DNA of 32,925 nucleotides from Thermoflexales bacterium. GTDB taxonomy: Bacteria; Chloroflexota; Anaerolineae; B4-G1; DUEL01. The stretch's first letter is position 1. The number at the start of each line of letters is the position of its first letter. Both the position numbers and the translations under genes were made by a program. The notes beneath the pieces are model-generated. The model saw only the letters and a program-made list of their open reading frames with translations. It was not told the origin of the DNA and ran no database searches. The stretch is taken from NCBI GenBank assembly GCA_037445395.1, contig JBBIKR010000020.1, positions 16,098 to 49,022 on the forward strand, in the 5' to 3' direction. This document shows, piece after piece, positions 5,913 through 25,501 of the stretch.

Positions 5913-7147
5913 GCCGGCCGCGTGTGGTCGTCACCGGCGTGGGCGCGGTCACCCCGCTGGGACTGACCGCCGAGGAGACCTGGCAGGGGCTGCTGGCGGG
6001 CCGCTCTGGCATCGGCCCCATCACCCAGTTTGACCCCTCCCACCTGCCGGTGCGCATCGCCGGGGAGGTAAAGGGGTTTGACCCGGCCCGCTATATGCCC
6101 TTCAAAGAGGCGCGGCGCGTGTCCCGCGCCTCCCAACTGGCCCTGGCGGCGGCACAGGAGGCACTGGCGATGGCAGGACTCACGCCGCCGCTGGGGGAAC
6201 GGGCCGGAGTCGTCATCGGCACCGGCATCGGTGGGCTGGAGTGGGCCTTTGCCCAGGCGCGTATCCTCTGGGAGCGGGGCTGGGAGCGGGTCAGCCCGTT
6301 CGCCATCACGGCCTCGCTGGCGAATATGCCCTCCCACCACATCAGCGAGTGGGCACAGGCGCTGGGGCCGATTCTGACCCCTGTCACTGCGTGTGCGGCC
6401 GGGACCCAGGCGGTGGGGGAGGGAGCGGAGGTCATCCGGCGCGGCGCCGCCGATGTGGTCATCGCCGGAGGGGTGGAGGGGTTCGTCCATGAGGTCGCCA
6501 TCGCGGGTTTCGCGGCCATGCGGGCCATCTCCACCCGCAACGACGAGCCCCAGCGGGCCAGCCGCCCCTTTGACGCGCAGCGGGACGGATTTGTGCTGGC
6601 AGAAGGGGCGGGCGTCCTGGTCCTGGAGCGCCTGGAGCACGCACAGGCGCGCGGCGCGCCCATCCTGGCAGAAGTGGTGGGATGGTCCTCATCGTCGGAC
6701 GGGTTTCACGTGGCCCAGCCGGACCCGGAGGGGCAGGGGGCGATGCGGGCGATGCGCTGGGCGCTGCAGGACGCGGGGGTGCAACCCGAGGAAGTGAACT
6801 ACATCAACGCCCACGGCACGGCGACCCCCCTCAACGATGTGGTGGAGACGCGGGCCATCAAGGGGGTCTTCGGCCCCCACGCCTATCAGGTCCCCATCAG
6901 CGCCACCAAGTCCATGACCGGCCACGCGATGGGCGGGTCGGGGGCCATAGAGGCGGTGGTCTGCGTGATGACGCTGCGGGACCAGGTCATCCATCCGACC
7001 GTCAACCTGGAGGAGCCGGACCCGGAGTGCGACCTGGACTACGTCCCCGGGCAGGCCCGCCGGGCCCGGGTGCGGGTGGTGCTCTCTAACTCCTTCGGGT
7101 TGGGAGGACAGAACGCCTGTCTGGTCCTCCGGGCCTGGGAGGAGTAG
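5909..7147 (+). CDS. fabF: beta-ketoacyl-ACP synthase II
   Basis: 412 aa. Active-site context ...VTACAAGTQAVGEG..., the two His motifs INAHGTATPLND and TKSMTGHAMGGSGA, and C-terminal SNSFGLGGQNACLV. Confidence 0.93.
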   Translation: MSRPRVVVTGVGAVTPLGLTAEETWQGLLAGRSGIGPITQFDPSHLPVRIAGEVKGFDPARYMPFKEARRVSRASQLALAAAQEALAMAGLTPPLGERAGVVIGTGIGGLEWAFAQARILWERGWERVSPFAITASLANMPSHHISEWAQALGPILTPVTACAAGTQAVGEGAEVIRRGAADVVIAGGVEGFVHEVAIAGFAAMRAISTRNDEPQRASRPFDAQRDGFVLAEGAGVLVLERLEHAQARGAPILAEVVGWSSSSDGFHVAQPDPEGQGAMRAMRWALQDAGVQPEEVNYINAHGTATPLNDVVETRAIKGVFGPHAYQVPISATKSMTGHAMGGSGAIEAVVCVMTLRDQVIHPTVNLEEPDPECDLDYVPGQARRARVRVVLSNSFGLGGQNACLVLRAWEE

Positions 7148-8869: not shown

Positions 8870-9652
8870 GTGAAGCAGAAATTGGTCATTGCCCTTTGCT
8901 GTCTGCTGCTCACCGCGTGCCGGCCGGTGAGTTCACCTGTCCCGTCGCCGACCGCCGCGCCGGTGGACGACGCCCGCTACGTCCAGATGAGGGAGCGAAT
9001 GGTGATTGAGACGATTCAGGCCCGGGGAATCCGGGACGAACGGGTACTGGAGGCGATGCGGACCGTCCCCCGCCACCTCTTCGTGCCGGAAGAGGAGCGC
9101 CCCCATGCCTACGGCGATTATCCGCTGCCCATCGGCTTCGGCCAGACCATCTCCCAGCCCTACATCGTCGCGCTGATGACGGAACTCCTGGACCTGAAGC
9201 CCGGCGATCGGGTGCTGGAGGTGGGTACCGGCTCCGGCTATCAGGCCGCCGTCCTGGCCTCCATCCCCGGCGTGGAGGTCTACTCGGTGGAAATCATCCC
9301 CGAACTGGCCCGCAGCGCGCAGGAGCGGTTGAGGGAGTTGGGCTATCCGGTGACCTGTAAGCAGGGGGACGGTTACTACGGCTGGCCGGAGTACGCTCCC
9401 TTTGACGCCATCATTGTCACTGCGGCGCCGGACCACATTCCTCCGCCGCTGGTGGAGCAACTGGCCGTGGGCGGGCGAATGGTCATCCCGGTGGGGCCAC
9501 CGGGCGGGTATCAGGTGCTCTGGAAACTGGTCAAGCAGCCGGATGGGGAGTTAAAGGCCTACAACTACGGCGGTGTGGCCTTCGTCCCCCTCACCGGGCC
9601 GGGGGTCCAGCAGCACCGGATGCAGGAGACCGCCACGCCCAGGCCGAAGTGA
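8870..9652 (+). CDS. pcm: protein-L-isoaspartate O-methyltransferase, lipoprotein form
   Basis: ...[10 protein letters not shown]...[27 protein letters not shown]...[16 protein letters not shown]...[25 protein letters not shown]. The GTG at 8870 gives [17 protein letters not shown], a lipobox signal, and avoids overlap with the upstream gene. The ORF track start at 8783 lies inside the previous gene. Confidence 0.88.
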
Positions 9653-12071
9653 GCCGCGCCCCCAGGTAGGCCACCGCCCCGGCCAGCAGGACGGCCCGGA
9701 AGCCCCAGGAGAGGGCCATCAGGGCCGCCAGGACGGACGCGACGACCGAGAGGGCCCCGTTGACCCCCCATGCCCAGGGCACCAGCGCCGGTTCCTGCTC
9801 CTGCAGGGCCCCCAGCAGGCGCGGGAAGGGCATCCCCATCGCCACCCCCAGCGGGGCCAGGCCCAGGCCGGTGACGGCCGCGCGCGCCCAGAAGGGCAAC
9901 CCCAGCAGCGGGCCCGACAGCAGGGACATCCCCAGACCGTAGAGGACGACCACCCCCACCACCCCCTCCAGCGCCCGGCGCGGAGGGACGCGCGCGGATA
10001 GAAGGCTCCCCAGTCCCGAAAAGAGCAACAGCGCCCCCAGCACCCCCGCCATCGCGTAGGCCGGATGCCCCAGAAATAGGATGAACCGCTGCAATAGGGG
10101 GATTTCCACCAGCATAAACCCCAGCCCCAGAAAGCCGAAGGGCGCCAACCGTAGGGGCAACCCTTGCGGTTGCCCGGCGGGTTTTCGTCCTGCCAGCGGC
10201 AGGAGAATCAGCACGCCCGCCGCGACGACGGCGATCCCCAACAGCGCCAGCACCACCAGATACCCCGCCCCACCGAACGGCTGCCAGACGTGGCCTGCCA
10301 TCGCCAGCACCTCCGGCATCTGCCGCCAGCGGAAAAAATGGCCGAAGAACGGGCGGTCGTCGGTGGGCGGCGCGACGTCAAAGGGGTAGTCGGCCAGCCA
10401 GCGGGCGCGGTCCTCGGCCTCCATCAGCCCGACGAAGGCCAGATAGTGCTCCGGGGTAGGCATCACGTTGTAGCGGTTGGCCTCTTCGGGGCGGATGTCG
10501 GGCGCGTAGGCCAGGTCCAGGGAGCGGGCGGCCGCAAAGGCCCGGATGGCCGCCAGTTCCCCGGGGGTGAAGGGGCCCCGGCGGGCCAGGATGAGCACCT
10601 GGTTGTAACTGCGCAGAGCGACCAGGCTCCGCGCCGGGTCGCCGCCGGTCCGTTCCACCGCCTCCACCGCCAGCGCGAAGGCCCGCACCTCCTCGGAGGG
10701 CGGCGACTGGGCCCAGCGGACCACTGTTAGCAGGCCCCCGTTGGTCAGGCGGCGCATCGCGGCGACGAAGCCCTCCACCGTGTACCGGTAGTTCTCCGCC
10801 AGACTGTAGGCGCCGGAGGTGACGGGGTGGTACGGCGCCGACAGGGCCATCAGGATGACGTCGTACTCCGGGCCGGCGCGGGCCAGGAAGGCCCGCCCGT
10901 CCTCCACAAAGAGGGTCACGCCGGAGCGGTCGTAGAGGTCTCCTGCCCAGGCCCCCTGTGCGCGGACAGCGGCGACGACCAGGGGGTTCGGCTCCACGGC
11001 CGTCACCGCCCGCGCGCCCAGCGCCTGCGCGACCCAGAGGTCCCAGCCGCCGCGCGGGTCCAGGACCAGCGCCCGGGCCCCCGGCCGCAGGCGGTACGGC
11101 AGCGCGGTCAGCAGACAGTCGGTCAGCGGGGCCAGTTCCGCCGGGTCTGTGACATGGGTGATGGGGCTGAGGTCGTCCCCGTCCACAAAGAGCGCCCGCT
11201 GCGGCGGCGGCTGTCCCCGGCAGGCGATGCCCTGCCCGGGGAGGCTCCGGATGAGGGAGGACTCCACCACATCCACCCGGGAGATGCCGTTCCAGGCGCG
11301 AAAGAGGAGGCGGCTATCCGGGTACTGGAGGGCGTAGGAGAGGCCCTTGTAGGGGGAAAGGCGGATTTCCAGGACGGGCGGGAGATGGAAGGCCGTCAGC
11401 CACAATCCCCCAGCGACGGCCAGTTGGAGGAGCGCGCTGGGCAGGCGGGAGCGGGAGAAGAGAAGGGCCGAGAGGCCGCCCAGCCCGGCGGTCAGGAATA
11501 CCATGCCCTCGGCGCCGGTAAGAGACGGAAGGGTGACCGCCAGCAGGCACCCCAGGGCCGACCCGGCCAGATTGGCCGCATAGGTCGGGCCCACCGCGCC
11601 CCGCCGAAGGGAGAGGAGCAGGCCTGTGGCTGCTCCGGCGCAGAAGAAGGGGAGGGAGAGGGCCACATAGTGGAGGGCCAGAATGCCCCACTGCCGGGGG
11701 TCCAGCGCGACGCGGAAGGAGTCAAAAGGGAGCGCCTGCGTCAGCCCGCAGGAACCGACGGCGGTGATGGCAAATCCCCAACTCAGCAGGGAGAGGGCCC
11801 GCCCGGGACGGCGGGCGATGCCCCCGGCCAGGCTCAGAAAAGTCCCGCTGGCGCCGAAGCCCAGCAGGGCCAGGCTGACCGTCATAAAGGCGAAGTGGTA
11901 GAACTGGGCGACGGAGAAGAGGCGGGTGAGGTTGACCTCAAAGGCCAGGGAGGCGGCGGAAAGGAGGAAGAGGGCCAGGAAATCGCGGGGCGCAGGGCGC
12001 GGGGGATAGCGCTCCGCTCCGCTGCCCACCGGACGAAAAGCGGAACGCCGGGGCGCATGCCCTTCGTACAT
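9591..12071 (-). CDS. polytopic membrane protein with central spermidine-synthase-like (class I MTase fold) domain
   Basis: 826 aa. N-terminal multi-TM region ([30 protein letters not shown]), a central soluble region ([30 protein letters not shown]...DVILMAL), and C-terminal TM helices ([16 protein letters not shown]). Confidence 0.7.
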
Positions 12072-12638: not shown

Positions 12639-15503
12639 ATGGAACAGATCATCGTCCGGGGCGCCCGGCAGCACAATCTCAAAAACATCACCGTGGAGAT
12701 TCCCCGCAACCGTCTGGTCGTCATCACCGGCATCTCCGGTTCGGGGAAGTCCTCCCTGGCCTTTGACACCATCTTCGCCGAGGGACAGCGCCGCTACGTG
12801 GAGTCCCTCTCCGCCTACGCGCGCCAGTTCCTGGGCGAGATGCAGAAGCCCGACGTGGATTCCATTGAGGGCCTCTCCCCCGCCATCTCCATTGACCAGC
12901 GGGGCGTCTCCCACAACCCCCGCTCCACCGTCGGCACCGTCACCGAAATCTACGACTATCTCCGTCTCCTCTACGCGCGCATCGGCATTCCCCACTGCCC
13001 CCAGTGTGGCCGGGAAGTCACCCGCCAGTCCGCCCAGCAGATTGTGGACGCCGTCCTGGCCCTGCCTGCCGGAACCCGCTTTATGGTACTGGCCCCCCTG
13101 GTCAAGGACCGCAAGGGCCACCACCAGGCCGTCTTTGAGGACGTGCGCAAGGCGGGCTTTGTCCGGGTCCGGGTGGACGGCGTGGTGCGGGACGTGGACG
13201 AGGAGATAGAACTGGACCGGTACAAACTCCACACCATAGAGGCGGTGGTGGACCGGCTCATCATCCCCGACGAGATAGACGACGGATTTCGCACCCGCCT
13301 CACCGATTCGGTGGAGACGGCGCTCCGTCTGGGCGACGGCGTCGTGGTCATCAACGACGTCTCCGCCGACCCGCCGCGCGACCTCCTCTACTCCGAACAC
13401 CTGGCCTGCCCGGTCTGCGGGATCAGTTTGCCGGAGATAGAGCCGCGGACGTTCTCCTTCAACAGTCCTCACGGCGCCTGCCGGACCTGCCAGGGGCTGG
13501 GGACGCGCACCGAACTGGACCCCGACCTCATCGTTCCCAACCCGGACCTCTCCCTGGAAGAGGGGGCCATCGTCGCCTGGAACACCGACGACCACGACGG
13601 CTACTACTGGCAACTGCTGGAGGCGACCGCGCGCTACTACCACATCCCCACCGACCGGCCCTGGCGGGAACTGACCCCCGCCCAGCGACAGACCATCCTT
13701 TACGGGAGCGGCGGCGAGGAGATTCCCATCACCTACACGGCGCGGGACGGTGGTCGGCGCATCTACCGCACCCCCTTTGAGGGCGTCATCCCCAACCTCC
13801 AGCGCCGCTACCGGGAGACGACGTCCGACTACATCCGCGCCAAAATAGAAGAATTTATGACCCGACGCCCCTGCCCGGCCTGCGGCGGGGCGCGCCTGAA
13901 GCCGGAGGCCCTGGCCGTCACCGTGGCCGGGAAAAACATCTACGAACTCACCCGGATGACGGCCAAACAGTTGCTGGAGTGGCTGGATGACCTGCCGTTG
14001 ACCGAGAAAGAGCGCATCATCGCCGACCGCATCCTGAAAGAAGTCCGCTCCCGGCTCCAGTTCATGGTCAACGTCGGCCTGGACTACCTGACGCTGGATC
14101 GGACCGCCGAGACCCTCTCCGGCGGCGAGGCCCAGCGCATCCGCCTGGCGACGCAGATCGGCTCCCAGTTGACCGGCGTCCTCTACGTCCTGGACGAGCC
14201 GACCGTCGGCCTGCACCAGCGGGATAACGACCGCCTCATCCGCACCCTCCAGGCGATGCGGGACCTGGGGAACACCCTCCTGGTCGTGGAGCACGATGAG
14301 GCGATGATCCGCTCCGCCGACTGGATCATAGACCTGGGGCCGGGGGCCGGGGAGAAAGGTGGGGAAGTTGTGGTCGCCGGGACGCTCCAGGACGTCCTCA
14401 ACCATCCCGTGAGCCTGACCGGGGCATATCTCTCCGGCCGCCGTCGCATCCCCCTCCCCCGCCGACGCCGCCCCGGCAACGGCCAGTTCCTGGTCGTCCG
14501 GGGGGCACGGGAGCACAACCTGAAAAATATTGACGTCCGCATCCCCCTGGGGATGTTTGTCTGCATCACCGGCGTCTCCGGCTCCGGCAAGTCCACCCTG
14601 CTGGTGGACGTCCTCTACCGTCGGCTGGCGCAGATGCTCCACGGCTCCCGCGAGCCCGCAGGAGAGCACGATACCATTGAAGGCGTGGAGCACGTAGATA
14701 AAGTCATCAATATTGACCAGTCCCCCATCGGGCGGACGCCCCGCTCCAATCCGGCCACGTACACCAACCTCTTCGGCCCCATCCGCGACCTCTTCGCCTC
14801 CCTGCCGGAGTCCAAAATTCGCGGCTACCGGCCCGGGCGGTTCTCCTTCAACGTCAAGGGGGGGCGGTGTGAGGCGTGCGAGGGGCACGGCGTCCTGCGC
14901 ATAGAAATGCAGTTCCTCCCTGACGTCTACGTCCCCTGCGACGTCTGCCACGGTCGGCGGTACAACCGCGAGACGCTCCAGGTGCGCTTCAAGGGGAAAA
15001 ACATCGCCGAGGTGCTGGATATGACGGTGGACGAGGCGGTGGAGTTCTTCTCCGCTTTTCCGGCCATTCAGCGCAAGTTGCAGACGCTCCAGGACGTGGG
15101 GTTGGGGTACATCCGGCTGGGCCAGCCCGCGCCGACCCTTTCCGGCGGCGAGGCCCAGCGGGTGAAACTGGCGCGGGAACTCTCCAAGATTGCCACCGGC
15201 CGCACCCTCTACGTCCTGGACGAGCCCAGTGTCGGCCTGCATGCGGCGGACGTGGACAAACTGGTGGCGGTCCTGAACCGGCTGGTGGACGCGGGCAACA
15301 CGGTGGTCATCATTGAGCACCACCCGGACATTATTAAAGTCGCCGACTGGATTATAGACCTGGGGCCGGAGGGAGGCGATGCCGGAGGCTGGGTCGTCGC
15401 CGAGGGCCGGCCCGAGGATGTGGCGCGAGTGGAGGCCAGTTACACCGGTCAGTTCCTGCGGCGGATTCTGGGGGAGTATGTCCTCCAGCCGATGTCTTTT
15501 TGA
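12639..15503 (+). CDS. uvrA: excinuclease ABC subunit A
   Basis: 954 aa starting [24 protein letters not shown]. Two ABC ATPase modules ([24 protein letters not shown]), LSGGEAQR signature twice, and zinc-finger cysteines (CPQCG, CPVCG...[14 protein letters not shown]...CDVCHG). The ORF track's 10827 start is an upstream stop-free extension. Confidence 0.96.
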
Positions 15504-16074
15504 CCACCTGACCACAGGGTATGACCTGGGTATGCTCCCGCTGGAGGTCGCCGTGTTGCGGCGCATGCGGCGGCGGGCGTTCCCAACGGTGGCGGGGCGG
15601 GTGCTGGAGGTGGGCGTCGGCACAGGGGTCAACCTCCCCCTCTACCCACCCGGCGCGGCCGTCGTCGCGCTGGACTTCAGCGCGCCGATGCTCCGGCAGG
15701 CCCTCCGCCGCCCCGCCCGCGCCCGCGTGCGCGCGGTCCAGGCAGACATCCACCACCTCCCCTTCCGGGACGGCGCCTTTGACGCCGTGACCGGCTCCCT
15801 GGTCTTCTGCTCCGTCGCCGAGCCGGAGCGGGCGCTGGGGGAGGTGTACCGGGTCCTCCGGCCCGGAGGGCGCCTGCTCCTCCTGGAGCACACCCGGGGC
15901 CGGGGCGCGGGCGCCTGGCTGACGGACCGCCTTCACCCTCTCTGGTTCGCCTGGAACGGCGTCTGCCACCTGAATCGGGAGACGGTCCGAACCCTCCAGG
16001 AAGTTGGGTTTCAACTCCACCGCGAGGAGACCCGCATCCTGGGCATCTTTCGGCTAATACAAGGAGTGAAGTGA
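15478..16074 (+). CDS. class I SAM-dependent methyltransferase (Methyltransf_11-like)
   Basis: [12 protein letters not shown] (motif I), ...ALDFSAPML..., ...[11 protein letters not shown]..., ...[16 protein letters not shown] 15478 overlaps the uvrA end by 26 nt. An alternative ATG lies at 15532. Confidence 0.8.
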
Positions 16075-16502
16075 ACGCGATAGGAACGATGCTCTACGAC
16101 CTGCTCCGGCAGAACTGGGTCCTTCTGCTGGTGCTCGGCCTGCTGGCGGGCGCCTGGCTCTTCCTGCGCACGCCAGCCGACCGGGTCTCCATAGACCTCT
16201 TCCAGCAGGAGATTCACGGCGGCCGGCCCGTCGTGGTGGAATTTTTCTCCAACACCTGAAGTGCCTGCCTGATGGCCAAACCTGCCGTGGACAGGTTAGA
16301 GCGGGAACTGAACGGGACAGCGAAAGTGTTGCGGATAGACGTGATGAGCCAGACCGGGCCGGCGCTGGCCCAGGAGTACGGCGTGCGCGCCGTACCCACC
16401 TTTATCGTCTTTGACGGGAAGGGGCAGGTGGTCTACGCCCAGGCCGGCCTGCCCGACCGGGCGGCCATACGGGAGGCCGTCCAGGCCGCCGCAGGCCCGT
16501 AA
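16071..16502 (+). CDS. membrane-anchored thioredoxin-like protein with in-frame TGA at the CxxC position (candidate selenoprotein, or pseudogene)
   Basis: ORFs 16071..16259 and 16272..16502 share one frame. Read-through gives an N-terminal TM helix, then RPVVVEFFSNT-[TGA 16257-16259]-SAC-LMAKPAVDRLEREL...YGVRAVPTFIVFDGKG. That is the Trx beta1 strand, a redox motif U/C-S-A-C, and a cis-Pro (VPT). Start is GTG 16071 (AAGGAG upstream) or ATG 16089. Confidence 0.6.
16275..16302 (+). promoter_or_regulatory. candidate bacterial SECIS-like stem-loop downstream of the in-frame TGA
   Basis: AACCUG (16279-16284) pairs with CAGGUU (16292-16297). The 7-nt apical loop is CCGUGGA and contains GU. A few extra pairs below an A.A mismatch extend the helix. 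The loop lies about 26-32 nt 3' of the UGA. Confidence 0.35.
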
Positions 16503-16522
16503 ACTCGCTTTTGGGGGCATTT

Positions 16523-17275
16523 GTGGAACTCTCATCTCCGTTGCTGACCATCATCATCCCTGCCTACAACGAGGAGCACCGCCTGCCGGTGACCCTCCCC
16601 CAGGTCGTCGCCTTCGCCGAGGCGCAGGCGTACCCGGTGGAGGTGCTGGTGGTGGATAACGCCAGCACCGACCGGACGGCCGATGTGGTCCGGGCGATCG
16701 CGGCCGAACACCCCATTGTCTCCCTCCTCTACCAGCCCATACGGGGGAAAGGGGCCGCCGTCCGGAAGGGGATGCTGGAAGGTCGGGGGGAATACCTGTT
16801 CATCTGTGATGCCGACCTGGCGATGCCCATTGAGCAGGTGTCCCGTTTTCTCCCTCCGGCGCTCTCCGACTACGACGTCGCCATCGCCTCCCGCGAAGCA
16901 CCGGGCGCGCGCCGGTTCAACGAGCCCTGGTACCGCCACCTTATGGGGCGCGTCTTCAACACCGTTGTGCGCCTGCTGGCGGTCCCGGGCATCCAGGACA
17001 CCCAGTGCGGCTTCAAGTGCTTCCGCCGGAAGGTGGCGCGCGACCTCTTCTCGGTGCAGAGGCTGGACGGCTGGGCGTTTGACGTGGAAGTGCTCTACAT
17101 CGCCCGTCGGCGCGGCTATCGCATCGTGGAAGTGCCGATTGACTGGTCCTACGGGGAGGGAAGCCGCGTCAGCCCGCTACGGGATTCCTGGAATATGTTC
17201 TGGGAAGTCATCCGCATCCGCCGCAACGGGCAGGCAGGGCTGTATGACCCGCCGAATACCCGCTTGACGGAGTAG
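16523..17275 (+). CDS. family 2 glycosyltransferase (polyprenyl-phosphate glycosyltransferase-like)
   Basis: LTIIIPAYNEEHRL..., VVDNASTDRT..., ICDADLAMP (DxD), ...QCGFKCFRR.... The start is uncertain: GTG 16523, TTG 16511 or TTG 16541. Confidence 0.85.
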   Translation: MELSSPLLTIIIPAYNEEHRLPVTLPQVVAFAEAQAYPVEVLVVDNASTDRTADVVRAIAAEHPIVSLLYQPIRGKGAAVRKGMLEGRGEYLFICDADLAMPIEQVSRFLPPALSDYDVAIASREAPGARRFNEPWYRHLMGRVFNTVVRLLAVPGIQDTQCGFKCFRRKVARDLFSVQRLDGWAFDVEVLYIARRRGYRIVEVPIDWSYGEGSRVSPLRDSWNMFWEVIRIRRNGQAGLYDPPNTRLTE

Positions 17276-17290
17276 TCGGAAAATGGCATA

Positions 17291-18325
17291 ATGGGGACAG
17301 CGAACGGCCGGAGTCCACCGCCGGACGCCGCCCACTACCCTCCATCCCGGAGACAATCGGTGTCATCGTTGCCGTTTTTCCACCCGATCCAGGACGACCT
17401 TCAGCGAGCAGAGGGCCTCTTGCAGGAACCGGCGCCGGACCAGCATCCGGCGATTACCGGTGCGGTGGAACTTCTGCTGGGAAGCGGCGGCAAACGGCTG
17501 CGCCCCGCTCTGGTCTTCCTGTCGGCCCGCCTGTGCGGGGCGGACCCCGATGTGGCGCTCCTCGCCGCCGCTGGCGTGGAGATGCTCCACACCGCCACCC
17601 TGGTCCACGACGACCTCATTGACGGCTCTCTGATGCGCCGGGGCGCGGAGACCCTCAACGCCCGCTGGTCTCCGGCGGCCACCGTCCTCACCGGCGATTA
17701 CCTCTTCGCCCGTGCCGCCTACTGGGTTGCCCGGACCGAAAATCCCCGCCTGGTGCAGCGGTTTGCCGAGACCCTGATGGTCATCTGCAACGGAGAAATC
17801 CGGCAGATGTTTGACGGGCGGGGGAAAGTGCCCTCCTTCCAGGAGTACGAACAGCGCATCTACGCCAAAACCGCCTCTCTGATCGCCCTCTCCGCGGAGT
17901 CGGGAGCCATCCTGGCCCATGCTGACGAAGCCGCCACCGCTGCCATGCGAACTTACGGTGAGCGGCTGGGTCTGGCTTTCCAGGTCGTGGATGACATTCT
18001 GGATTTCGTCGCCGACGAGCGGACCCTGGGCAAGCCGGTCGGCAGCGACCTCCGTCAGGGATTGGTCACGTTGCCCGTCATGCTCTTCCTGGAACAAAGC
18101 GGCGACCACCCGGCCCTCCGCCGTATCCTCAACCACGGCTCATCCGACCCGACGGTGCAGGAAGCGGTCCAGGCCATTGCGGCCTCCCCGGCCATTGAAC
18201 GCTCCCTCCAGGTCGCCCGCGAGTACATCCGGGAAGCGAAAGAGGCCCTGCAACCCTTCCCGTCCTCCGAATACCGGACTGCCCTCCTGGACCTGGCCGA
18301 CTTCGTCGTCCAGAGAAAGTTCTGA
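17291..18325 (+). CDS. polyprenyl diphosphate synthase (long-chain trans-prenyltransferase)
   Basis: First Asp-rich motif LHTATLVHDDLIDGSLMRRG and second motif FQVVDDILDF. An alternative GTG start at 17360 has GGAGA upstream. Confidence 0.88.
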   Translation: MGTANGRSPPPDAAHYPPSRRQSVSSLPFFHPIQDDLQRAEGLLQEPAPDQHPAITGAVELLLGSGGKRLRPALVFLSARLCGADPDVALLAAAGVEMLHTATLVHDDLIDGSLMRRGAETLNARWSPAATVLTGDYLFARAAYWVARTENPRLVQRFAETLMVICNGEIRQMFDGRGKVPSFQEYEQRIYAKTASLIALSAESGAILAHADEAATAAMRTYGERLGLAFQVVDDILDFVADERTLGKPVGSDLRQGLVTLPVMLFLEQSGDHPALRRILNHGSSDPTVQEAVQAIAASPAIERSLQVAREYIREAKEALQPFPSSEYRTALLDLADFVVQRKF

Positions 18326-19254
18326 TGGTGGACCTCTCCGTCATCATCGTCAACTGGAACGTCCGGGACCTTCTCCGGCGCTGTCTCCAATCCATTTTTG
18401 CAAACCTGCCCGCCTGCCGACTGGAAATCATCGTTGTGGACAATGCCTCCGGCGACGGGAGCGCAGAGATGGCGCGGACGGAGTTCCCCCAGGTCCGCCT
18501 GATCGCCAATCCCGACAACCGGGGCTTTCCGGCGGCCAACAACCAGGGGCTGGCAGTCGCCCGGGGCCGCTACGTCCTGCTCCTGAACCCGGATACCGAA
18601 GTCCTGAGCGACGCTCTGGAGACCATGGTCGCCTTCGCCGATACCCACCCCGACGTCGGCGTGGTCGGCCCGCAACTGCTGAATCCTGACGGGACGGTGC
18701 AGTCCTCCCGCCGCCGCTTCCCCACCCTGGCGACGGCCCTCTTTGAGTCCACCTGGCTTCAGCCCTACGCCCCGCGCCGTCTGCTGGAGCGCTACTACGT
18801 CCTGGACCGCCCCGACGACCAGGTACAGGATGTGGACTGGGTAACTGGCGCGGCGCTGATGGCCCGGCGGGAGGCAGTGGAGCAGGTGGGGCCGCTGGAT
18901 GAGGGGTTCTTTATGTACTGCGAGGAACTGGACTGGTGCCGCCGGTTTCGGGAGGCTGGCTGGCGGGTGGTCTATCTGCCCACGGCGCGCATCGTCCACC
19001 ACGTCGGGAAGAGCAGCGAGCAGGTGTTACCCGCCCGGCACATCCACTTTCAGACCAGCAAGGTGCGCTATTTCCGCAAGTACCACGGCCCGGTCGCGGC
19101 GGAACTTCTGCGCTGGGTTTTGCTGGGCAACTACCTCTGGCAGATAGGACTGGAGGGAGTCAAGTGGCTTTTGGGCCACAAGCGGCCCCTGCGGGCCGGA
19201 CGAATCGCCGCCTACGGGCAGGTGGTGCGCAGCGGTCTACGTGTACGGAGATAA
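18325..19254 (+). CDS. family 2 glycosyltransferase
   Basis: LSVIIVNWNVRDLLRRCL..., VVDNASGDGS, NRGFPAANNQG, LLNPDT (DxD-like). The start overlaps the previous stop (ATGA-type junction at 18325). Confidence 0.88.
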   Translation: MVDLSVIIVNWNVRDLLRRCLQSIFANLPACRLEIIVVDNASGDGSAEMARTEFPQVRLIANPDNRGFPAANNQGLAVARGRYVLLLNPDTEVLSDALETMVAFADTHPDVGVVGPQLLNPDGTVQSSRRRFPTLATALFESTWLQPYAPRRLLERYYVLDRPDDQVQDVDWVTGAALMARREAVEQVGPLDEGFFMYCEELDWCRRFREAGWRVVYLPTARIVHHVGKSSEQVLPARHIHFQTSKVRYFRKYHGPVAAELLRWVLLGNYLWQIGLEGVKWLLGHKRPLRAGRIAAYGQVVRSGLRVRR

Positions 19255-19257
19255 CCA

Positions 19258-20478
19258 GTGCGCATCGGCCTTATCACCGGCGAATTTCCCCCCGACCAGG
19301 GCGGCGTAGGCGACTTCACTGCCTGCCTGGCGCGAAGCCTGTCCGAACTCGGCCACGACGTCCATATCGTCACGGGTCCCCCTCGCTCCGATGCGCCCTG
19401 TGACCTGCGCCCTGCGACCTGTACTGTCCACCGCGCCGTCCCCCACTGGCGCTGGGGCTGCTGGCGGGATGTGCTCCGGGTAGCCCGCGAGGCACGCCTG
19501 GATGTCCTGAACCTCCAGTACCAGGCCGCTGCCTACGGGATGCATCCGGCCATCCACTTCCTCCCCCGCCGCACCCGGCGTCCTCCGGTCGTGGTGACCT
19601 TCCACGACCTGCGGGTCCCCTACCTGTTCCCCAAAGCCGGCCCCCTGCGCCGCTGGGTCGTCTTCTTCCTGGCCCGTCGCGCCGACGGGGTCATTGCCAC
19701 CAACGAAGAGGACTTCCGCGCACTGGAAGAGACCGCGCATCCGGCCCGGCTGGCCCTCATCCCCATCGGTAGCAACATCCCGCCTGCCCCACCCCCGAAC
19801 TACGACCGGGATGCCGAACGGGCCCGCTGGGGTGTGGGACCGGACGACCTGCTCCTGGGCTACTTCGGCTTCCTGAACGAGAGCAAGGGTGGGGAAGAAC
19901 TGATCCGCGCCCTGGCATTGCTGGTGGAAGGGGGAATTCCGGCCCATCTCTTAATGGTCGGTGGGCCGGTGGGCACCTCCGACCCCACCAACCGGGCCTA
20001 CGCCGAGCGGGTCAGGGCGCTGATCGCCGAACTGGGACTGGCAGACCGGGTCCACTGGACCGGGTATACCGACCCGCCGTCGGTCTCGGCAGGCCTGCTG
20101 GCCACCGACATCTGCGTCCTCCCCTATCGGGACGGCGTCTCCTTCCGCCGGGGGACGCTCCATGCCTGTCTGGCCCACGGGCGGGCCATCGTCACCACCT
20201 GGCCAGCCCTGCCGCTGCCAGAGGTGCGGGACAGGGAGAACATGCGGCTGGTGCCGCCCCGCGACCCGCGCGCGCTGGCGGCCGCGGTGGTGGAAATCCA
20301 CCGGAACCCGGACCTGCGGGTACGCCTGGAGCGGGGTGCGCAGGCCCTCGCCGCCGAATTCTCCTGGGAGCGTATTGCCCGCCGAACAGCATCGTTCCTG
20401 GAACAAATTCTCACGGAGCACGAACCACGGAATCCGCACTACGCCATACGGAATACGCCACACGGGGGTACCCAATGA
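19258..20478 (+). CDS. family 4 (GT-B) glycosyltransferase
   Basis: MRIGLITGEFPPDQGGVGDFT... N-terminus. The C-terminal half has ...LPYRDGVSFRRGTLHACLAHGRAIVTT.... GTG start with GGAG 7 nt upstream. The last ~15 codons are encoded by a heptamer repeat. Confidence 0.85.
   Translation: MRIGLITGEFPPDQGGVGDFTACLARSLSELGHDVHIVTGPPRSDAPCDLRPATCTVHRAVPHWRWGCWRDVLRVAREARLDVLNLQYQAAAYGMHPAIHFLPRRTRRPPVVVTFHDLRVPYLFPKAGPLRRWVVFFLARRADGVIATNEEDFRALEETAHPARLALIPIGSNIPPAPPPNYDRDAERARWGVGPDDLLLGYFGFLNESKGGEELIRALALLVEGGIPAHLLMVGGPVGTSDPTNRAYAERVRALIAELGLADRVHWTGYTDPPSVSAGLLATDICVLPYRDGVSFRRGTLHACLAHGRAIVTTWPALPLPEVRDRENMRLVPPRDPRALAAAVVEIHRNPDLRVRLERGAQALAAEFSWERIARRTASFLEQILTEHEPRNPHYAIRNTPHGGTQ
20425..20466. 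repeat. Heptamer tandem repeat (NNACGNN x6) forming the 3' end of the GT4 gene
   Basis: ccacgga atccgca ctacgcc atacgga atacgcc acacggg. Same family as 4510-4544, 26853-26880 and 32046-32080. Confidence 0.7.
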
Positions 20479-22718
20479 CCCGCACTCCCATCCCTTCATC
20501 CCCATTGCCCCGGCGCTTTCTCTGGCCGGTCCTCGTCCTCTACCTAGTCCTGGCCCTCCTCCACAGCGCGGTGAACCCTCTTTTTGAATCCTCCGACGAG
20601 ATGTGGCACATCGGTATGGCGGTCCGCCTGGCGCGGGGCGAGGGCCTGCCGGTCCAGCACCCCGGCGAAGAGACTCCCTGGCGGCAGGAAGGGAGCCAGC
20701 CGCCCCTTTATTATGCCTTTCTGGCCGGACTCACCCGTCTATCAGGCCTGCCCCTGAGCGACTTTGAAAGCATCTACTTTCCAAATCCCCACGCCTGCCT
20801 TGGGGATGCCTCCTGTATTGCGGCGCGAAATCACGTGCTACATCACCCTCAAGAAGCCTTCCCCTGGCGCGGGGCCGTCCTCACCCTCCACCTCTGGCGC
20901 CTGGTCTCCGTCCTCCTGGGCCTTCTGACCGTACTGACAACGGCGAACGCTGTCCACCTCCTCTTCCCTCACCGCCCCGGTTGGGCTCTGGGGAGCGGCC
21001 TGCTGGTAGCCGTCAACCCGATGTTCCTCTTCATTGCCGCCTCAGTGAACAACGACAATCTGGTCAACGCGGCCACCGCGACGGGCCTCTGGCTCCTGGC
21101 CCTCCGCCTCCGGCGGGGCTTCTCCTGGCCGCGCGCCGTTCTCCTGGGCCTGACCCTGGGTGCGGCCGCGCTGGCCAAACTCAGCGGTCTCACCCTCTGG
21201 CCCCCGGCCCTCCTCTTCCTCCTGGGCGTCGCGTGGCAGGAACGGCGGTGGCGGCGCGGGCTTCTGGAGACGGCCGTCGTCTTCGCCATCGCCCTGGCCC
21301 TCTGCGGCTGGTGGTTCTGGCGCAACTGGACCCTTTACCGCGACCCCTTCGGCCTCCCGGTCATGCTGGACATCGTCGGGCGGCGGTCGGCCACCATCGC
21401 CGATCTCCTGCGGGAGTTCCAGGGCTTCCGCTACTCCTTCTGGGGCGTCTTCGGCGGGATGAACGTCCTGATGCCCGAATGGACCTACGTCCTTCTGGAC
21501 CTGTGGACGGCTCTCTGTGCCCTGGGTCTTCTTCTGGCCGTGGGACGGGCCGCCCATGAGGCCGCGCGCACCCGCCGCTGGGGAACAGAGTGGCTCCTGG
21601 GGCTATGGCTGCTGGCCTACGTCGCCGTCCTCTTCATTGCCTTCCTGCGCTGGACAGCGCAGACCCCGGCCTCTCAGGGGCGGCTGATGTTCCCCGCCAT
21701 CGGCCCCATCTCCCTGGGGCTATGGGTAGGTTGGGAGCAGATCGCGCGGTCCTCACCCCTCCCCCGCCGCCTGCGGCGGTTAGGAGGAGGGGTGAGGCTC
21801 CTCCCCGCCATCTTCCTGGCCGCGCTGGCCCTGCTGGCGCCCGTCCTCTGGATCGCCCCGGCCTACCGCCCTCCCGATCTGCCCATCCCGGCGGAAATCC
21901 CCAACCCCCTGAAGGCAACCTTCGGCGACGAGTTCCGCCTGCTGGGGTACGACCTTCACCCGTCCGCGCTGGAGCCGGGGGACACCGTAAACCTGGTCCT
22001 CTACCTGGAAACCCTCCGGCCCCCGACGCGGGACTGGAGCCTTTTCGTCCATCTGGTAGACGACCTGGAGATCATCCTGGCCCAGGACGACCGCTACCCC
22101 CGTCAGGGGCTGGTCCGGGCGACCCAATTGCGGGCAGGGGAGCGCTGGGCGGAGATCGTCCGGCTGCGGGTCCCGGAGACGGCCGTCGCTCCGGCGCGCC
22201 TGACCCTGATGGCAGGCTTCTACGACCTGCGCACGGGAGAGCGGATGCCGGTGGCGGGGCAGGCGGATAGCCTGCGCTTCGTTTCTTTCGGAGAACTGGC
22301 GCTCCGGCCCCACCCCGGCCCGTATCCCAACCCCGTCTCCTATCGCTTCGGCGACCGGATAGAACTGGTGGGGTACGAAATGGCCCCCCGACGAGTGCGC
22401 CCCGGCGAAACGGTGGTGCTGACGCTGTACTGGAAATCCCTCGGCCCCACGGAGCACGACTACACCGTCTTCACCCACATCCTGGAGCCGCCGCAGACCA
22501 TCTGGGGGCAGGAGGACCGTCCGCCGACCCCGCCCACCTCTCAATGGCGGCGCGGGGAAGTGTATCGGGAAACTTACCATCTGACCGTCAAACCGGAAAC
22601 CCCTGGCGGCTTCTACGAAGTGGAGATCGGCCTCTATCGCCCCGATACCGGCGAGCGTCTGCGCCGGGATGACGGACAGAACTTCTTGCTCCTGAGCCGT
22701 ATTCGGGTGGACCGATGA
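20475..22718 (+). CDS. polytopic GT39/ArnT-like (GT-C) glycosyltransferase with duplicated C-terminal soluble domain
   Basis: 747 aa. Many TM helices, with the early loop NPLFESSDEMWH. The C-terminus has two related modules: FGDEFRLLGYDLHPSALEPGDTVNLVLYLETL... and FGDRIELVGYEMAPRRVRPGETVVLTLYWKSL.... The ATGA overlaps the GT4 stop. Confidence 0.8.
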   Translation: MTRTPIPSSPLPRRFLWPVLVLYLVLALLHSAVNPLFESSDEMWHIGMAVRLARGEGLPVQHPGEETPWRQEGSQPPLYYAFLAGLTRLSGLPLSDFESIYFPNPHACLGDASCIAARNHVLHHPQEAFPWRGAVLTLHLWRLVSVLLGLLTVLTTANAVHLLFPHRPGWALGSGLLVAVNPMFLFIAASVNNDNLVNAATATGLWLLALRLRRGFSWPRAVLLGLTLGAAALAKLSGLTLWPPALLFLLGVAWQERRWRRGLLETAVVFAIALALCGWWFWRNWTLYRDPFGLPVMLDIVGRRSATIADLLREFQGFRYSFWGVFGGMNVLMPEWTYVLLDLWTALCALGLLLAVGRAAHEAARTRRWGTEWLLGLWLLAYVAVLFIAFLRWTAQTPASQGRLMFPAIGPISLGLWVGWEQIARSSPLPRRLRRLGGGVRLLPAIFLAALALLAPVLWIAPAYRPPDLPIPAEIPNPLKATFGDEFRLLGYDLHPSALEPGDTVNLVLYLETLRPPTRDWSLFVHLVDDLEIILAQDDRYPRQGLVRATQLRAGERWAEIVRLRVPETAVAPARLTLMAGFYDLRTGERMPVAGQADSLRFVSFGELALRPHPGPYPNPVSYRFGDRIELVGYEMAPRRVRPGETVVLTLYWKSLGPTEHDYTVFTHILEPPQTIWGQEDRPPTPPTSQWRRGEVYRETYHLTVKPETPGGFYEVEIGLYRPDTGERLRRDDGQNFLLLSRIRVDR
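21751..21797. repeat. REP-like palindrome embedded in the GT39-like coding region
   Basis: cctcacccctcc (21751-21762) pairs with ggaggggtgagg (21786-21797) as a perfect 12-bp stem enclosing a ccgcc-tgc-ggcgg hairpin. The first 29 nt are identical to intergenic 31266-31294. Confidence 0.75.
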
Positions 22719-22751
22719 TTACGGGACGCGGATGAACGCAGTGGGCTCCAG

Positions 22752-22799
22752 AAAAAGGGGCTGGAGCGGCGGCCCGGGCCGCCGCTCCAGCCCTTTTTT
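22752..22799. terminator. bidirectional intrinsic terminator between convergent genes
   Basis: aaaaa-gggctggagcggcggcc/ggccgccgctccagccc-tttttt: a 17-bp perfect GC-rich stem flanked by an A5 and a T6 run. It lies between the GT39-like stop (22718) and the ferredoxin stop (22826). Confidence 0.85.
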
Positions 22800-22825
22800 G
22801 TGAGCCTCCAGGGGTGCTGGTCGGC

Positions 22826-23227
22826 CTACGGTGTGGGCGTGGGCATCTCCACCAGAGCCAGCGCGTCCGCGGGGCACTCCTTCACACACTGCCCGCAGGC
22901 CACGCACTTGAACGGCTCCAGCAGGTCCGGATGGTAGAACATCGCCAGGTACGGGCAGAAGCCGACGCAAGAGAGGCACCCCACACAGAGTTGCTTGCGC
23001 AACCGGACAATGCCCTGCTTATCCCGATACAGGGCCTGGGTCGGGCAGACGGCGATGCATTCGCCGCACTGGATACAGAACGTGGCCTGCAGAGGACCCG
23101 AACCCTCATCCCGAATCACGATGCTGGACTTCGCCGCGTCGGGGGTCTTGAACCAGGTCTCCGCGCAGACCTCCTCACAGATATGGCAGCCAACGCAGAG
23201 TTCGGCATTATAGGAGAGGACTTTCAT
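22826..23227 (-). CDS. 4Fe-4S dicluster ferredoxin-type protein
   Basis: 133 aa from MKVLSYNAELCVGCHICEEVC.... Several CxxCxxC(xxxCP) motifs: CIQCGECIAVCP, CVGCLSCVGFCP, CVACGQCVKECP. GAGGAG RBS. The ORF track's upstream extension to 24100 runs through repeats and the antisense strand of yceD. Confidence 0.88.
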   Translation of the reverse strand: MKVLSYNAELCVGCHICEEVCAETWFKTPDAAKSSIVIRDEGSGPLQATFCIQCGECIAVCPTQALYRDKQGIVRLRKQLCVGCLSCVGFCPYLAMFYHPDLLEPFKCVACGQCVKECPADALALVEMPTPTP

Positions 23228-23270
23228 GGCTGTTCTCCTCGCGCAGATGGGACTGTTCCGGTGCAACCGT

Positions 23271-23299
23271 ATATTACCAGAAAATGCCCCAACGGGCAA
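23271..23299 (-). promoter_or_regulatory. sigma-70-type promoter for the ferredoxin gene (TTGCCC-17-TAATAT on minus strand)
   Basis: Plus-strand gggcaa at 23294-23299 and atatta at 23271-23276, about 44 nt upstream of the start codon. Confidence 0.45.
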
Positions 23300-23334
23300 A
23301 CCGAGCAGATTGAGGCCTGTGTACCCAATCCCCT

Positions 23335-23434
23335 GGGGGAAGCGTCGCGCCCATAAGGGGAGGGTACGGGTTTTGCGGGCGGGCTGCGCTTGCCCGCAAA
23401 ACCCCAACCCCTTTCCAGCCCACTGGGGGCGAAT
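23335..23434 (+). repeat. about 100-nt hairpin element (GGGTTTTGC-GGCGGGCTGCGC-GCAAAACCCC core), copy 1
   Basis: Core at 23368-23405: gggttttgcgggcgggctgcgcttgcccgcaaaacccc. Flanks (ggggaagcgtcgcgcccat...ggggag... / ...ctgggggcgaat) match copy 2 at 25325-25422 in the same orientation. Confidence 0.8.
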
Positions 23435-23468
23435 TGTCGCAAAAACCCAAAACTGGCGCCAAAAACCC

Positions 23469-23497
23469 TTGACGAAAGCCTTCTTTTCTGTTATAAT
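23469..23497 (+). promoter_or_regulatory. near-consensus sigma-70 promoter (TTGACG-17-TATAAT)
   Basis: -35 at 23469-23474 and -10 at 23492-23497, with a 17-nt AT-rich spacer. Located 127 nt upstream of the yceD ATG. Confidence 0.7.
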
Positions 23498-23534
23498 ATG
23501 TGTAAATCCAGCACAAAAGGCGGTTGAACGATTC

Positions 23535-23623
23535 AGTACCAGGCACTTTCCCGATGGATTCAGCGACTTCTTTTTCCTGAGACCGACATGGCCTGAGGAA
23601 GTGCCTGGTACTTTTGTGTTTCT
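23535..23623 (+). ncRNA. structured leader or small RNA: 14-bp perfect helix closing a ~50-nt insert, followed by a U-rich tract abutting the yceD start
   Basis: agtaccaggcactt (23535-23548) pairs with aagtgcctggtact (23599-23612), then tttgtgtttct (23613-23623), then ATG 23624. No purine-rich SD lies between the helix and the ATG. Confidence 0.4.
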
Positions 23624-24121
23624 ATGGTTCAGATAGACCTTTCCCCGCTCATCGGGGCGCGTCCGGGTGAGCGCCTCTCCTTCACTCTGGATGAAGGCCC
23701 TCATCATCTGGATGACATCTCGGTGGCCTTCCTCCGTGGCCCCATTCAGTTCACTCGCGTCCAGGGCGGTATTCTGGTGGAAACCCGGATAGAAACCCGC
23801 GTGGAGATAGAATGCGTCCGGTGCCTGGAACCATTTCCCTATGACACCGTCCTGGAGGTAGAGGAGACCATCGGTCTGAGTGGACGGCCACGCCCCGGCA
23901 TTTCGTACACCCTGACCGAAGAGGGATGGTTTGACCCCCTGCCCTTGCTGCGAGAGCAAATCTGGGTCAATCTCCCGATGAAACCGCTGTGCCGCCCGGA
24001 CTGCAAGGGCATCTGCCCGGAGTGCGGAGCAAATCTGAACCTGGAACCCTGCCGCTGTGGAGAAGAGAGAGTAGACCCCCGACTGGCTCCCCTGGCTCAA
24101 TTTCTCGGGAATCAGAAGTAG
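23624..24121 (+). CDS. yceD: YceD/DUF177 family protein
   Basis: 165 aa with the family's C-terminal cysteine cluster, [23 protein letters not shown], followed by DPRLAPL. Confidence 0.85.
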
Positions 24122-24140
24122 GGATCAGGGAGTAAGGATT

Positions 24141-25271
24141 ATGGATATACTGGAAGAACTGCTGGAGAAAGCGGAAGCCCAGGGGTATCTGACGACCAGC
24201 GATATTCTGGACCTGCTGCCGGAGGCCGACTGCTCCCCGGAGCAACTGGATGAAATCATCGCGCTGTTGAGCGAAGCGGGCATTGAGGTATATGACGAGT
24301 TACCTGCCGCAGAGGCGGAAGACCCGACCGAACTGGCCGAGGTAAACCTGGATGACCTGAGTGGAATTGCGGCGGACGACGCGGTGGGTCTCTACCTTCG
24401 GGAAATGGCCCGGGTGCCGTTGCTCTCACTGGAAGAAGAGTCTCGTCTGGCGCACATCATTGAATTGGGGCGCCAGGCGGAGCGAGTGCTGGCGAACAAT
24501 GGGACCGACCCGGTGGAGCGGGCCCGACTGGAAGCGCTGGTGGAGGAGGCCCGGGCCGCGCGGGAACACCTGATCAAGGCCAACACCCGCCTGGTGGTCA
24601 GCATCGCCAAGAAGTACATCGGTCGTGGGGTCCCGTTTCTGGACCTGATTCAGGAAGGGAATCTTGGCCTGATGAAAGCGGTGGAGAAATTTGACTACCG
24701 GCGAGGTTATCGCTTCAGCACCTATGCGACCTGGTGGATTCGTCAAACGATCAGCCGGGCCGTGGCCGATCAGAGCCGGACCATCCGCGTCCCCGTCCAC
24801 ATGTCCGACCGCATCCGCCGTCTCTACAAGACGGCCCAGCAACTGGAGCAGGAGTACGGCCGTCCCCCTACCCCCGAAGAGATTGCCGCCGAACTGGATA
24901 TGGAACCGCGCAAGGTCCAGTGGATGCTCCGTGTCTCGTGGCGGCCGCTCAGCCTGGAGCACCCGGTGGGGGAAGAGGAAGATAACGAACTGGGGGCATT
25001 TATTGAGGACGATTCCACCCCTACCCCTCCCCAGAGTGCATATCAAAAGATGCTGGCGGAGAAGATAGAGGAGGTGCTATCCACGCTCAGCCCCCGGGAA
25101 GCCCGCATCCTGCGCCTCCGCTTTGGGCTGGGAGGAGGCCGCAGCCACACCCTGGAGGAAGTGGGGCAGAAATTCGGCCTGACGCGCGAGCGAATCCGCC
25201 AGATTGAGGGCAAGGCCCTCCGCCGGCTGCGTCACCCTCGCCGCAGCCGACAACTGCGGCAGTATCTGTAA
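24141..25271 (+). CDS. rpoD: RNA polymerase primary sigma factor
   Basis: 376 aa. Region 1.2 ([12 protein letters not shown]), region 2 ([16 protein letters not shown]...[37 protein letters not shown]), region 3, and region 4.2 ([29 protein letters not shown]). Confidence 0.96.
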
Positions 25272-25283
25272 TCTGTCATTGAG

Positions 25284-25323
25284 AAGATGACGGTCGCCTC
25301 AAGGGCGACCGTCATCTTATTTC
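25284..25323 (+). terminator. intrinsic terminator after rpoD
   Basis: aagatgacggtcgcc (25284-25298) pairs with ggcgaccgtcatctt (25304-25318) as a 15-bp perfect stem, followed by atttcc. Confidence 0.7.
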
Positions 25324-25324
25324 C

Positions 25325-25422: not shown

Positions 25423-25451
25423 GGCTGTGCAAGCCCCACATAGCAAGCGGC

Positions 25452-25479: not shown

Positions 25480-25501
25480 GGTTCTTTTGAAAGGGGAACC
25501 G

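Follow-up and report, generated by a model that had tools for sequence, protein, structure and literature searches.

Between positions 16071 and 16502 of its forward strand, the window analysed here (the whole stretch of 32,925 nucleotides from Thermoflexales bacterium, phylum Chloroflexota) contains one reading frame of 143 codons followed by TAA, whose sole interruption is an in-frame TGA at 16257-16259 that is proposed to specify selenocysteine (Sec, U). The frame starts with a GTG at 16071 that is preceded by AAGGAG, and the starts of the orthologues coincide with it in position but use ATG. A preliminary description of this DNA had noted that the listing of open reading frames (ORFs) divides the locus into an ORF of 62 amino acids (16071-16259, GTG start) and another of 76 amino acids (16272-16502), which share the frame and are parted by the TGA and the four codons AGT GCC TGC CTG, and both the sequence and the ORF list confirm this arrangement. 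Translation through the TGA reads ...RPVVVEFFSNT[TGA]SACLMAKPAVDRLERE...GVRAVPTFIVFDGKG..., and the elements recognised in and around the gene are the following:

16061-16066, forward strand: Shine-Dalgarno-like AAGGAG, read directly from the sequence, 4 nt ahead of the GTG and of putative function.
16071-16502, forward strand: predicted coding sequence of a thioredoxin-like selenoprotein (Pfam Thioredoxin, E = 7.4e-14; ratio of nonsynonymous to synonymous substitution rates, dN/dS, of about 0.3 before as well as after the TGA).
16116-16166, forward strand: predicted N-terminal transmembrane helix, residues ~16-32, WVLLLVLGLLAGAWLFL (mean Kyte-Doolittle hydropathy of 1.97 over 19 residues).
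16257-16259, forward strand: in-frame TGA, proposed Sec codon, residue 63, aligning with the first Cys of CGPC.
16266-16268, forward strand: TGC, putative resolving Cys, residue 66, of U-S-A-C (column invariant in the family protein alignment).
16279-16297, forward strand: hairpin of the Sec insertion sequence (SECIS) type, with a stem AACCUG/CAGGUU, inside which a C.A mismatch is followed by a GUG loop (16287-16289) closed by C-G, predicted from RNAalifold, covariation and frozen codons.
16260-16309, forward strand: possible lower stem, 16260-16262/16307-16309 and 16264-16270/16298-16305, tentative and derived from the fold of the window only.
16395-16397, forward strand: CCC, putative cis-proline P109 of the V-P-T element (invariant column, matching I-P-T of thioredoxins).

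When a Cys is put at the TGA, the translated product matches the Pfam family Thioredoxin (PF00085) with E = 7.4e-14 and 52.1 bits, the cut-off being 23.5. The phmmer comparison of a Cys-containing orthologue with the sequences of the Protein Data Bank (PDB) aligned FFSNT-C-SVC-LMSKP with FWAPW-C-GPC-RMIAP of thioredoxins, and this alignment with solved thioredoxins identifies the TGA column as the attacking Cys and V-P-T as the cis-proline loop. The earlier proposal that the stop codon occupies the place of the N-terminal nucleophilic Cys of a CxxC motif is borne out by the same alignment, in which the column falls on the first Cys of CGPC. A structure model was made from the Cys orthologue P0001 (85% identical), which stood in for the window protein. 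AlphaFold2 modelled it with a mean predicted local distance difference test (pLDDT) score of 86 as a helix at residues 3-32 followed by a thioredoxin fold, in which the strand at 54-59 leads into the helix at 64-79, and Foldseek searches with this model returned thioredoxins as the best matches, with a target-normalised TM score of about 0.8. The protein belongs to the thioredoxin-fold superfamily, since its score exceeds the Pfam cut-off, its CxxC-type motif opens helix 1 and it has a cis-proline loop. The Pfam match, the N-terminal helix and the thioredoxin-fold model of the orthologue support the view that read-through yields a membrane-anchored thioredoxin-like protein, and the match and the model also agree with the claim that neither ORF alone makes a full thioredoxin fold. 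The product of the gene is thus very probably a small membrane-anchored protein of the thioredoxin fold with the active site U-S-A-C and Sec at residue 63.

The distribution of the TGA among relatives was followed by a protein search and then by a scan, based on the family alignment, of metagenomes and species-representative genomes, which yielded 127 homologous loci. The protein search returned the full-length Cys homologues P0001, P0002 and P0003 (85, 77 and 48% identity, respectively) and three proteins of 78 amino acids that start precisely at MAKP and represent C-terminal halves. The contigs of all three displayed the same succession of a 62-amino acid ORF, TGA, S-A-C-L and the 78-amino acid ORF. 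The codon at the Sec column was TGA in 116 of the 127 loci, TGC in eight (L010-16 and L022) and TGT in three (L082-84). Among the species-representative genomes, 28 of 29 carried TGA, and they comprised Thermoflexus sp., Thermoflexales, Anaerolineae, Anaerolineales, Dehalococcoidia and SAR202-type Chloroflexota, with an amino acid identity to the window that dropped to 25-35% across the TGA homologues. Because the same codon is TGA in so many loci, down to this level of identity, its placement by chance is excluded. Whether orthologues carry Cys or TGA at this column, a point on which the preliminary description had placed weight, is therefore settled mostly in favour of TGA, and Cys/Sec pairs exist.

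These data also bear on the competing explanation that a pseudogenisation or a base-call error turned TGC or TGT into TGA in an ordinary membrane thioredoxin-like gene. The change from TGC to TGA is a single substitution and the closest full-length match in the protein database, at 85% identity, is the Cys form P0001, but the TGA recurs in 116 independent loci that span many assemblies and lineages, both halves of the gene evolve under purifying selection, as described below, and the USACLMAKP of the window together with its hairpin resembles the TGA relatives, unlike the CSVCLMSKP of the Cys forms. The conservation of the TGA and the selection on both halves exclude this explanation, to which we attach a vanishingly small probability.

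The nearest relatives of the Cys lineages all carry TGA. L010 falls nearest to the window and L018, L082/83 fall nearest to marine TGA forms and L014 is more similar to the TGA form L021 (89.6%) than to the other Cys form. Because this holds for every Cys lineage, Cys looks derived, and the change from Sec to Cys looks to have happened at least twice and probably three times. Both Thermoflexales Cys lineages, L010-L013 (10187) and L014-L016/L022 (6625), read C-S-V-C-L-M-S-K, compared with U-S-A-C-L-M-A-K in their nearest TGA relatives. This shared motif may represent a parallel change after the loss of Sec or shared ancestry beyond the resolution of such a short gene.

Analysis of the coding constraint demonstrated that purifying selection acts on both halves of the gene. 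Over 55 Thermoflexales/Anaerolineae pairs, the median pairwise dN/dS was 0.28 in the 61 codons that precede the TGA and 0.31 in the 72 that follow it. The family protein alignment contains invariant residues on either side of the TGA, and the coding signature in the GC content of the three codon positions (GC1/GC2/GC3) is seen on both sides as well. When the 33-kb window was scanned, no further ORF with a coding signature proved to be broken by a TGA, the remaining matches being antisense shadows. In addition, TGA is the ordinary stop codon of the methyltransferase, uvrA and polyprenyl synthetase genes of the window, and the organism therefore uses the standard code. The alternative that TGA is read as Trp or Gly organism-wide (code 4 or 25) finds an echo in the European Nucleotide Archive (ENA) gene calls of the marine homologues P0006 and P0008, which give W (code 4), but it is contradicted by these three stop codons, by the scan of the window and by the hosts themselves, which are Chloroflexota and use the standard code, so that its probability is practically negligible.

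Another possibility is a split gene, in which the UGA would be a real stop and the locus would produce a membrane peptide of 62 amino acids and a fragment of 76 amino acids from the ATG at 16272. Gene callers annotate just these two ORFs, and an ATG is located four codons past the TGA in the window and in its Thermoflexales/Anaerolineae relatives. Contrary to what a split gene would suggest, neither half by itself is a complete thioredoxin fold, the ATG at 16272 has no Shine-Dalgarno sequence ahead of it and the stop falls invariably on the column of the catalytic Cys. When start codons were sought within 15 codons after the TGA in 73 distinct TGA members, 45 had no ATG, while their two halves were still in frame and conserved, and 15 had no ATG, GTG or TTG at all. 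The split gene is consequently very unlikely, and expression of the downstream ORF alone, which the preliminary description had regarded as fatal to its own proposal, is unlikely in view of these counts of start codons.

The region immediately downstream of the TGA provided further evidence for Sec decoding. The stem-loop noticed in the preliminary description, AACCUG/CAGGUU at 16279-16297, is present as it had been described. It is encoded inside the codons of K-P-A-V-D-R-L, its stem begins 19 nt past the UGA and its 7-nt loop, reading CCGUGGA, occupies 16285-16291, that is, 26-32 nt past the UGA. A gapless alignment of 77 distinct TGA-bearing segments was used to evaluate the structure. From the 77 sequences, RNAalifold recovered, unaided, a 6-bp stem with a 7-nt loop in the columns that correspond to 16279-16284/16292-16297. 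In an 8-pair version of the hairpin, 89.6% of the cells were standard pairs, compared with 14-39% when the 3' partners were slid by one to three columns. Compensatory changes occurred at three pairs (20 cells), with G-C or A-U at the second, U-A to G-C or C-G at the fifth and G-C to A-U at the sixth, and the covariation score of the hairpin was matched by none of 500 shuffles. The synonymous sites point in the same direction: CCT encodes the Pro of the hairpin in 83 of 87 distinct genes but makes up 19% of the other Pro codons in those genes, and AGG encodes its Arg in 85 of 87, with a share of 13% elsewhere. In one TGA member (L073, 1441-1489), the peptide is K-P-I-V-D-G-L, encoded with CCC ATC GTG GAT GGG, and the replacement of Arg by Gly keeps the pairing; RNA structure seems here to take precedence over the conservation of the protein.

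In this region, the Cys forms depart from the TGA forms. Of the four Cys forms, three have a weakened hairpin or none: it has gone altogether in L082-84, where the peptide is K-P-A-I-D-D-L, and it is disrupted by a CCC mismatch in L010. L014 alone among the Cys forms keeps it, and its closest relative, L021, carries TGA. The core hairpin has a median energy of -7.6 kcal/mol among TGA forms, compared with -1.1 kcal/mol among Cys forms. The persistence of the hairpin in relatives, which the preliminary description had singled out as informative, thus holds for the TGA forms, where it is conserved with covariation and frozen synonymous sites, and breaks down in L082-84 and L010.

The published bacterial SECIS (bSECIS) model consists of a loop of 3-9 nt, a stem of 4-16 bp, a G in the first two loop positions, the loop pattern N1-G-[G|U]-N-N2, a distance between UGA and loop of 16-37 nt and a minimum free energy (MFE) of -7.5 kcal/mol or lower (PMC13188914). 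The geometry of the window hairpin agrees with this model, with a stem of 6-8 bp and a C-G-U-G-G loop that reads as N1-G-[G|U]-N-N2 at 25-27 nt from the UGA. The rule on G fails if the loop is read as the 7-nt CCGUGGA, and it fits when the C.A mismatch and the GUG closed by C-G, 27 nt past the UGA, are taken into account. Concerning energy, the core of the window hairpin reaches -5.2 to -6.2 kcal/mol, or -15.5 kcal/mol when the predicted, non-conserved lower stem is counted, and 75% of the distinct family hairpins attain -7.5 kcal/mol or lower on the core alone.

The conservation of the TGA, the existence of Cys/Sec pairs, the coding constraint and the covariation of the hairpin all support the initial proposal of a UxxC selenoprotein with a SECIS hairpin. 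Judging from these sequence comparisons, 16071-16502 is very likely a true selenoprotein gene whose SECIS is functional. By analogy with the established bacterial mechanism, the hairpin at 16279-16297 would recruit SelB-GTP-Sec-tRNA(Sec) as the ribosome meets the UGA, and Sec would be inserted at 16257-16259 with no termination. The product would be a thiol/selenol-disulfide oxidoreductase in which, following thioredoxin-family chemistry, Sec63 would attack as the nucleophile, giving a selenenylsulfide with the substrate that Cys66 would resolve.

Several observations weigh against this interpretation. The single-sequence fold of the window is no better than that of shuffles (z = 0.06 and -0.44), and its hairpin is among the weakest of the family, the core energy given above standing on the wrong side of the -7.5 kcal/mol limit of the bSECIS model. 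Moreover, the unconstrained MFE of the window segment favours a competing structure (-16.4 kcal/mol, vs -15.5 kcal/mol with the hairpin enforced), and the lower stem around the hairpin differs in close relatives such as L018. The significance of the hairpin comes from the comparison with relatives only. The peptide K-P-x-V-D-R-L is itself conserved, and part of the nucleotide conservation of the hairpin is accordingly owed to the protein. Searches against Rfam with the window at the gathering threshold and with 16200-16360 at E values up to 10 gave only chance matches, none of them to a SECIS family. With respect to the decoding machinery, ARAGORN found no tRNA-Sec in the window and 50 loci, and tblastn searches with E. 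coli SelA, SelB and SelD detected no homologue in the window and the fetched loci, which amount to ~0.86 Mb. The absence of sel genes and of tRNA-Sec says little because just this ~0.86 Mb was searched. SelB-like tblastn matches were obtained in L043 and in L109, and they corresponded to TypA/BipA and to IF-2 located after NusA, respectively, hence not to SelB. Finally, the positive-inside rule is the only basis of the membrane topology considered below.

Indirect evidence for Sec decoding in the group is available from other genomes. Dehalococcoidia bacterium UBA1141 has 49 selenoprotein genes and ranks among the top ten bacteria in a set composed of species that possess the Sec pathway (PMC13326102), and a SelB has been described from Anaerolinea thermophila and from single-cell genomes of Anaerolineales (PMC4959059). 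The family member at L040 comes from UBA1141. The doubt that remains about Sec stems from the sel genes of the window's own genome and from a small chance that the UGA is recoded to another amino acid, either to Cys, through a tRNA(Cys) that resembles tRNA(Sec), has the anticodon UCA and works with SelB, or to Trp or Cys by near-cognate read-through. Recoding of UGA to Cys with SelB was reportedly described by Vargas-Rodriguez et al. in 2018 in some anaerobes, and a SelB-dependent Cys recoding would need the hairpin too. However, such systems are rare, a host genome of the family is the one reported with the Sec pathway and 49 selenoproteins, and the repeated swap to true Cys codons, after which the hairpin decays, follows the classical pattern of Sec/Cys exchange. 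We consider non-Sec recoding very unlikely and Sec the preferred reading of the UGA.

Regarding the position of the protein within the thioredoxin superfamily, the scores do not reach the equivalogs of TrxA/TrxC (TIGR01068, 59.9 vs 96.8 bits; NF006898, 36.8 vs 138; NF008229, 37.4 vs 125), and the window protein presents T-U-S-A-C and a membrane anchor in contrast with the W-C-G-P-C of canonical TrxA/TrxC. The models of TlpA/ResA/DsbE are not reached either (Redoxin, 22.1 vs 26.6; AhpC-TSA, 17 vs 26; dsbE, TIGR00385, 20.6 vs 123), and the window protein is without the insertion that is typical of TlpA, ResA and DsbE. Although it is no member of this group, it may act like them, as an anchored extracytoplasmic reductant. 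Among the curated selenoprotein models of NCBIfam, none was matched at its cut-off, and just TsoB (NF045694, 22.3 vs 805) and PDO_seleno_TRX (TIGR02187, 16.5 vs 185) were seen.

Members from Thermoflexales/Anaerolineae have a single N-terminal transmembrane helix with Arg/Lys before it and acidic residues after it, and in Dehalococcoidia members two such helices are joined by a basic loop. For both arrangements, the positive-inside rule weakly suggests that the thioredoxin domain faces the cell exterior. The active sites vary within the family, with U-[IVL]-[AGT]-C in Dehalococcoidia/SAR202 members (L032-L046 and marine metagenome loci) and U-P-P-C in some Anaerolineae members.

Proteins of the thioredoxin fold with a UxxC motif are the commonest kind of bacterial selenoprotein. 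The Sec-thioredoxin family (PF00085, UxxC; for example, in Treponema denticola) has been experimentally verified in prokaryotes (PMC13188914). The window protein shares with it the PF00085 fold, the predicted replacement of the N-terminal nucleophilic Cys of CxxC by Sec and a SECIS in the coding region just past the UGA. In contrast to Sec-thioredoxin, it is anchored by an N-terminal transmembrane helix (by two in Dehalococcoidia), the active site of its family is [FY]-S-N-x-U-x-x-C instead of W-U-G-P-C and the family is limited to Chloroflexota, as far as it has been sampled. Other UxxC selenoproteins of the thioredoxin fold listed in the same study (Table 1) include thiol:disulfide interchange proteins (PF13098), thiol-disulfide isomerase-like/TlpA-like proteins (cd02966), redoxins, DsbA-like proteins, SaoT and thioredoxin-like proteins with a HUIPC motif (PMC13188914). 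Like these predicted families, all of which were recognised through Cys/Sec pairs and bSECIS, the window protein would be a thiol-disulfide oxidoreductase with an attacking Sec, and several of them are anchored or exported. At the RNA level, the organisation is that of the SECIS/SelB system of E. coli fdhF, with an in-frame UGA, a hairpin in the coding region, a small apical loop with G/U and dual coding with the protein. The sequences are unrelated: the GUG loop closed by C-G found here differs from the GGUC and bulged U of fdhF, and the role of SelB is here a predicted one.

In the literature, no description of the specific family of the window was found, a BSepDB listing under the generic heading 'thioredoxin' having been left unchecked. 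We put forward tentatively, and with more doubt than confidence, that these proteins form a distinct family spread across Chloroflexota (Thermoflexales, Anaerolineae, Dehalococcoidia and SAR202) and new to curated lists, a probably outward-facing, anchored seleno-thioredoxin that would be almost obligately Sec, with TGA in ~90% of loci and the SECIS hard-wired in K-P-x-V-D-R-L. The family is well supported but unsurprising to a specialist, and the understanding of Sec decoding is unchanged by it. It offers a clean natural case in which a SECIS and a conserved peptide motif are locked together and in which Sec has reverted to Cys several times, with decay of the hairpin. It would also serve as an additional selenoprotein marker for Chloroflexota, including thermophilic relatives of Thermoflexus and the abundant marine SAR202/Dehalococcoidia, and would imply that Chloroflexota lineages invest selenium in a membrane-bound redox function.

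An important practical consequence is that public metagenome-assembled genomes (MAGs) systematically mis-annotate the gene as a 62-amino acid ORF and another of 76-78 amino acids, and some gene calls give Trp under code 4. In the NCBI MAGs GCA_026415475.1 (L001, 6306-6743), GCA_025062415.1 (L002) and GCA_034432695.1 (L005, 6914-7351), a nameless ORF of 62 amino acids is followed by a 'thioredoxin family protein' of 78 amino acids. The apparent Trp of P0006 corresponds to a TGA in its contig (L017, 444-446), so the caller used code 4. The code-4 calls in P0006 and P0008, which lie on short marine contigs, mask the Sec codon as a false W-x-x-C. Because the gene is split or the codon is read as Trp, the half that carries the active site and the Sec trait are invisible in the annotations.

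The genes that flank the selenoprotein candidate in the window are the following:

15379-16074, forward strand: class I S-adenosylmethionine (SAM)-dependent methyltransferase gene with a TGA stop and a true start that is probably past 15379 (ORF list; Methyltransf_11/25 and Ubie_methyltran in relatives).
16511-17275, forward strand: family-2 glycosyltransferase (GT2) gene, a conserved neighbour in Thermoflexales/Anaerolineae (Glycos_transf_2 in relatives; 87-95% identity).
17291-18325, forward strand: polyprenyl synthetase gene with a TGA stop (Pfam polyprenyl_synt in relatives; synteny).

The GTG start of the selenoprotein frame overlaps the TGA stop of the methyltransferase gene (GTGA, 16071-16074), which suggests translational coupling of the two genes. 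TGA is a stop at the end of the methyltransferase and yet the proposed Sec codon 186 nt further downstream. The window groups with Thermoflexales, whose GT2 and polyprenyl synthetase are 92-95% and 85-94% identical to its own, respectively. The order methyltransferase, thioredoxin-like gene, GT2 and polyprenyl synthetase, followed by further glycosyltransferases, is kept only in Thermoflexales/Anaerolineae, and no recurrent gene neighbours were found in the Dehalococcoidia loci. Because the gene order is not kept beyond Thermoflexales/Anaerolineae, no functional partner or substrate can be named.

Downstream of the selenoprotein gene, the region 16511-30487 contains the GT2, the polyprenyl synthetase, a second GT2, a family-4 glycosyltransferase (GT4) and a large membrane protein of the DUF2142 type (Pfam, syntenic in L010/L011), and it looks like a polyprenol-linked glycan cluster. 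In an Anaerolineae MAG (L005), the selenoprotein locus is adjoined by an RtcB RNA ligase gene interrupted by an intein (3135-6113, reverse strand; Intein_splicing), beside an archease gene (6340-6765, reverse strand). Elsewhere in the window, 9591-12071 (reverse strand) encodes a polytopic membrane protein of 826 amino acids rich in Leu, Ala and Gly, whose relatives (822 amino acids in L010) have no Pfam match. The 10-12 kb block around this gene has the highest GC content of the window (0.707) and a strong AT skew (0.29).

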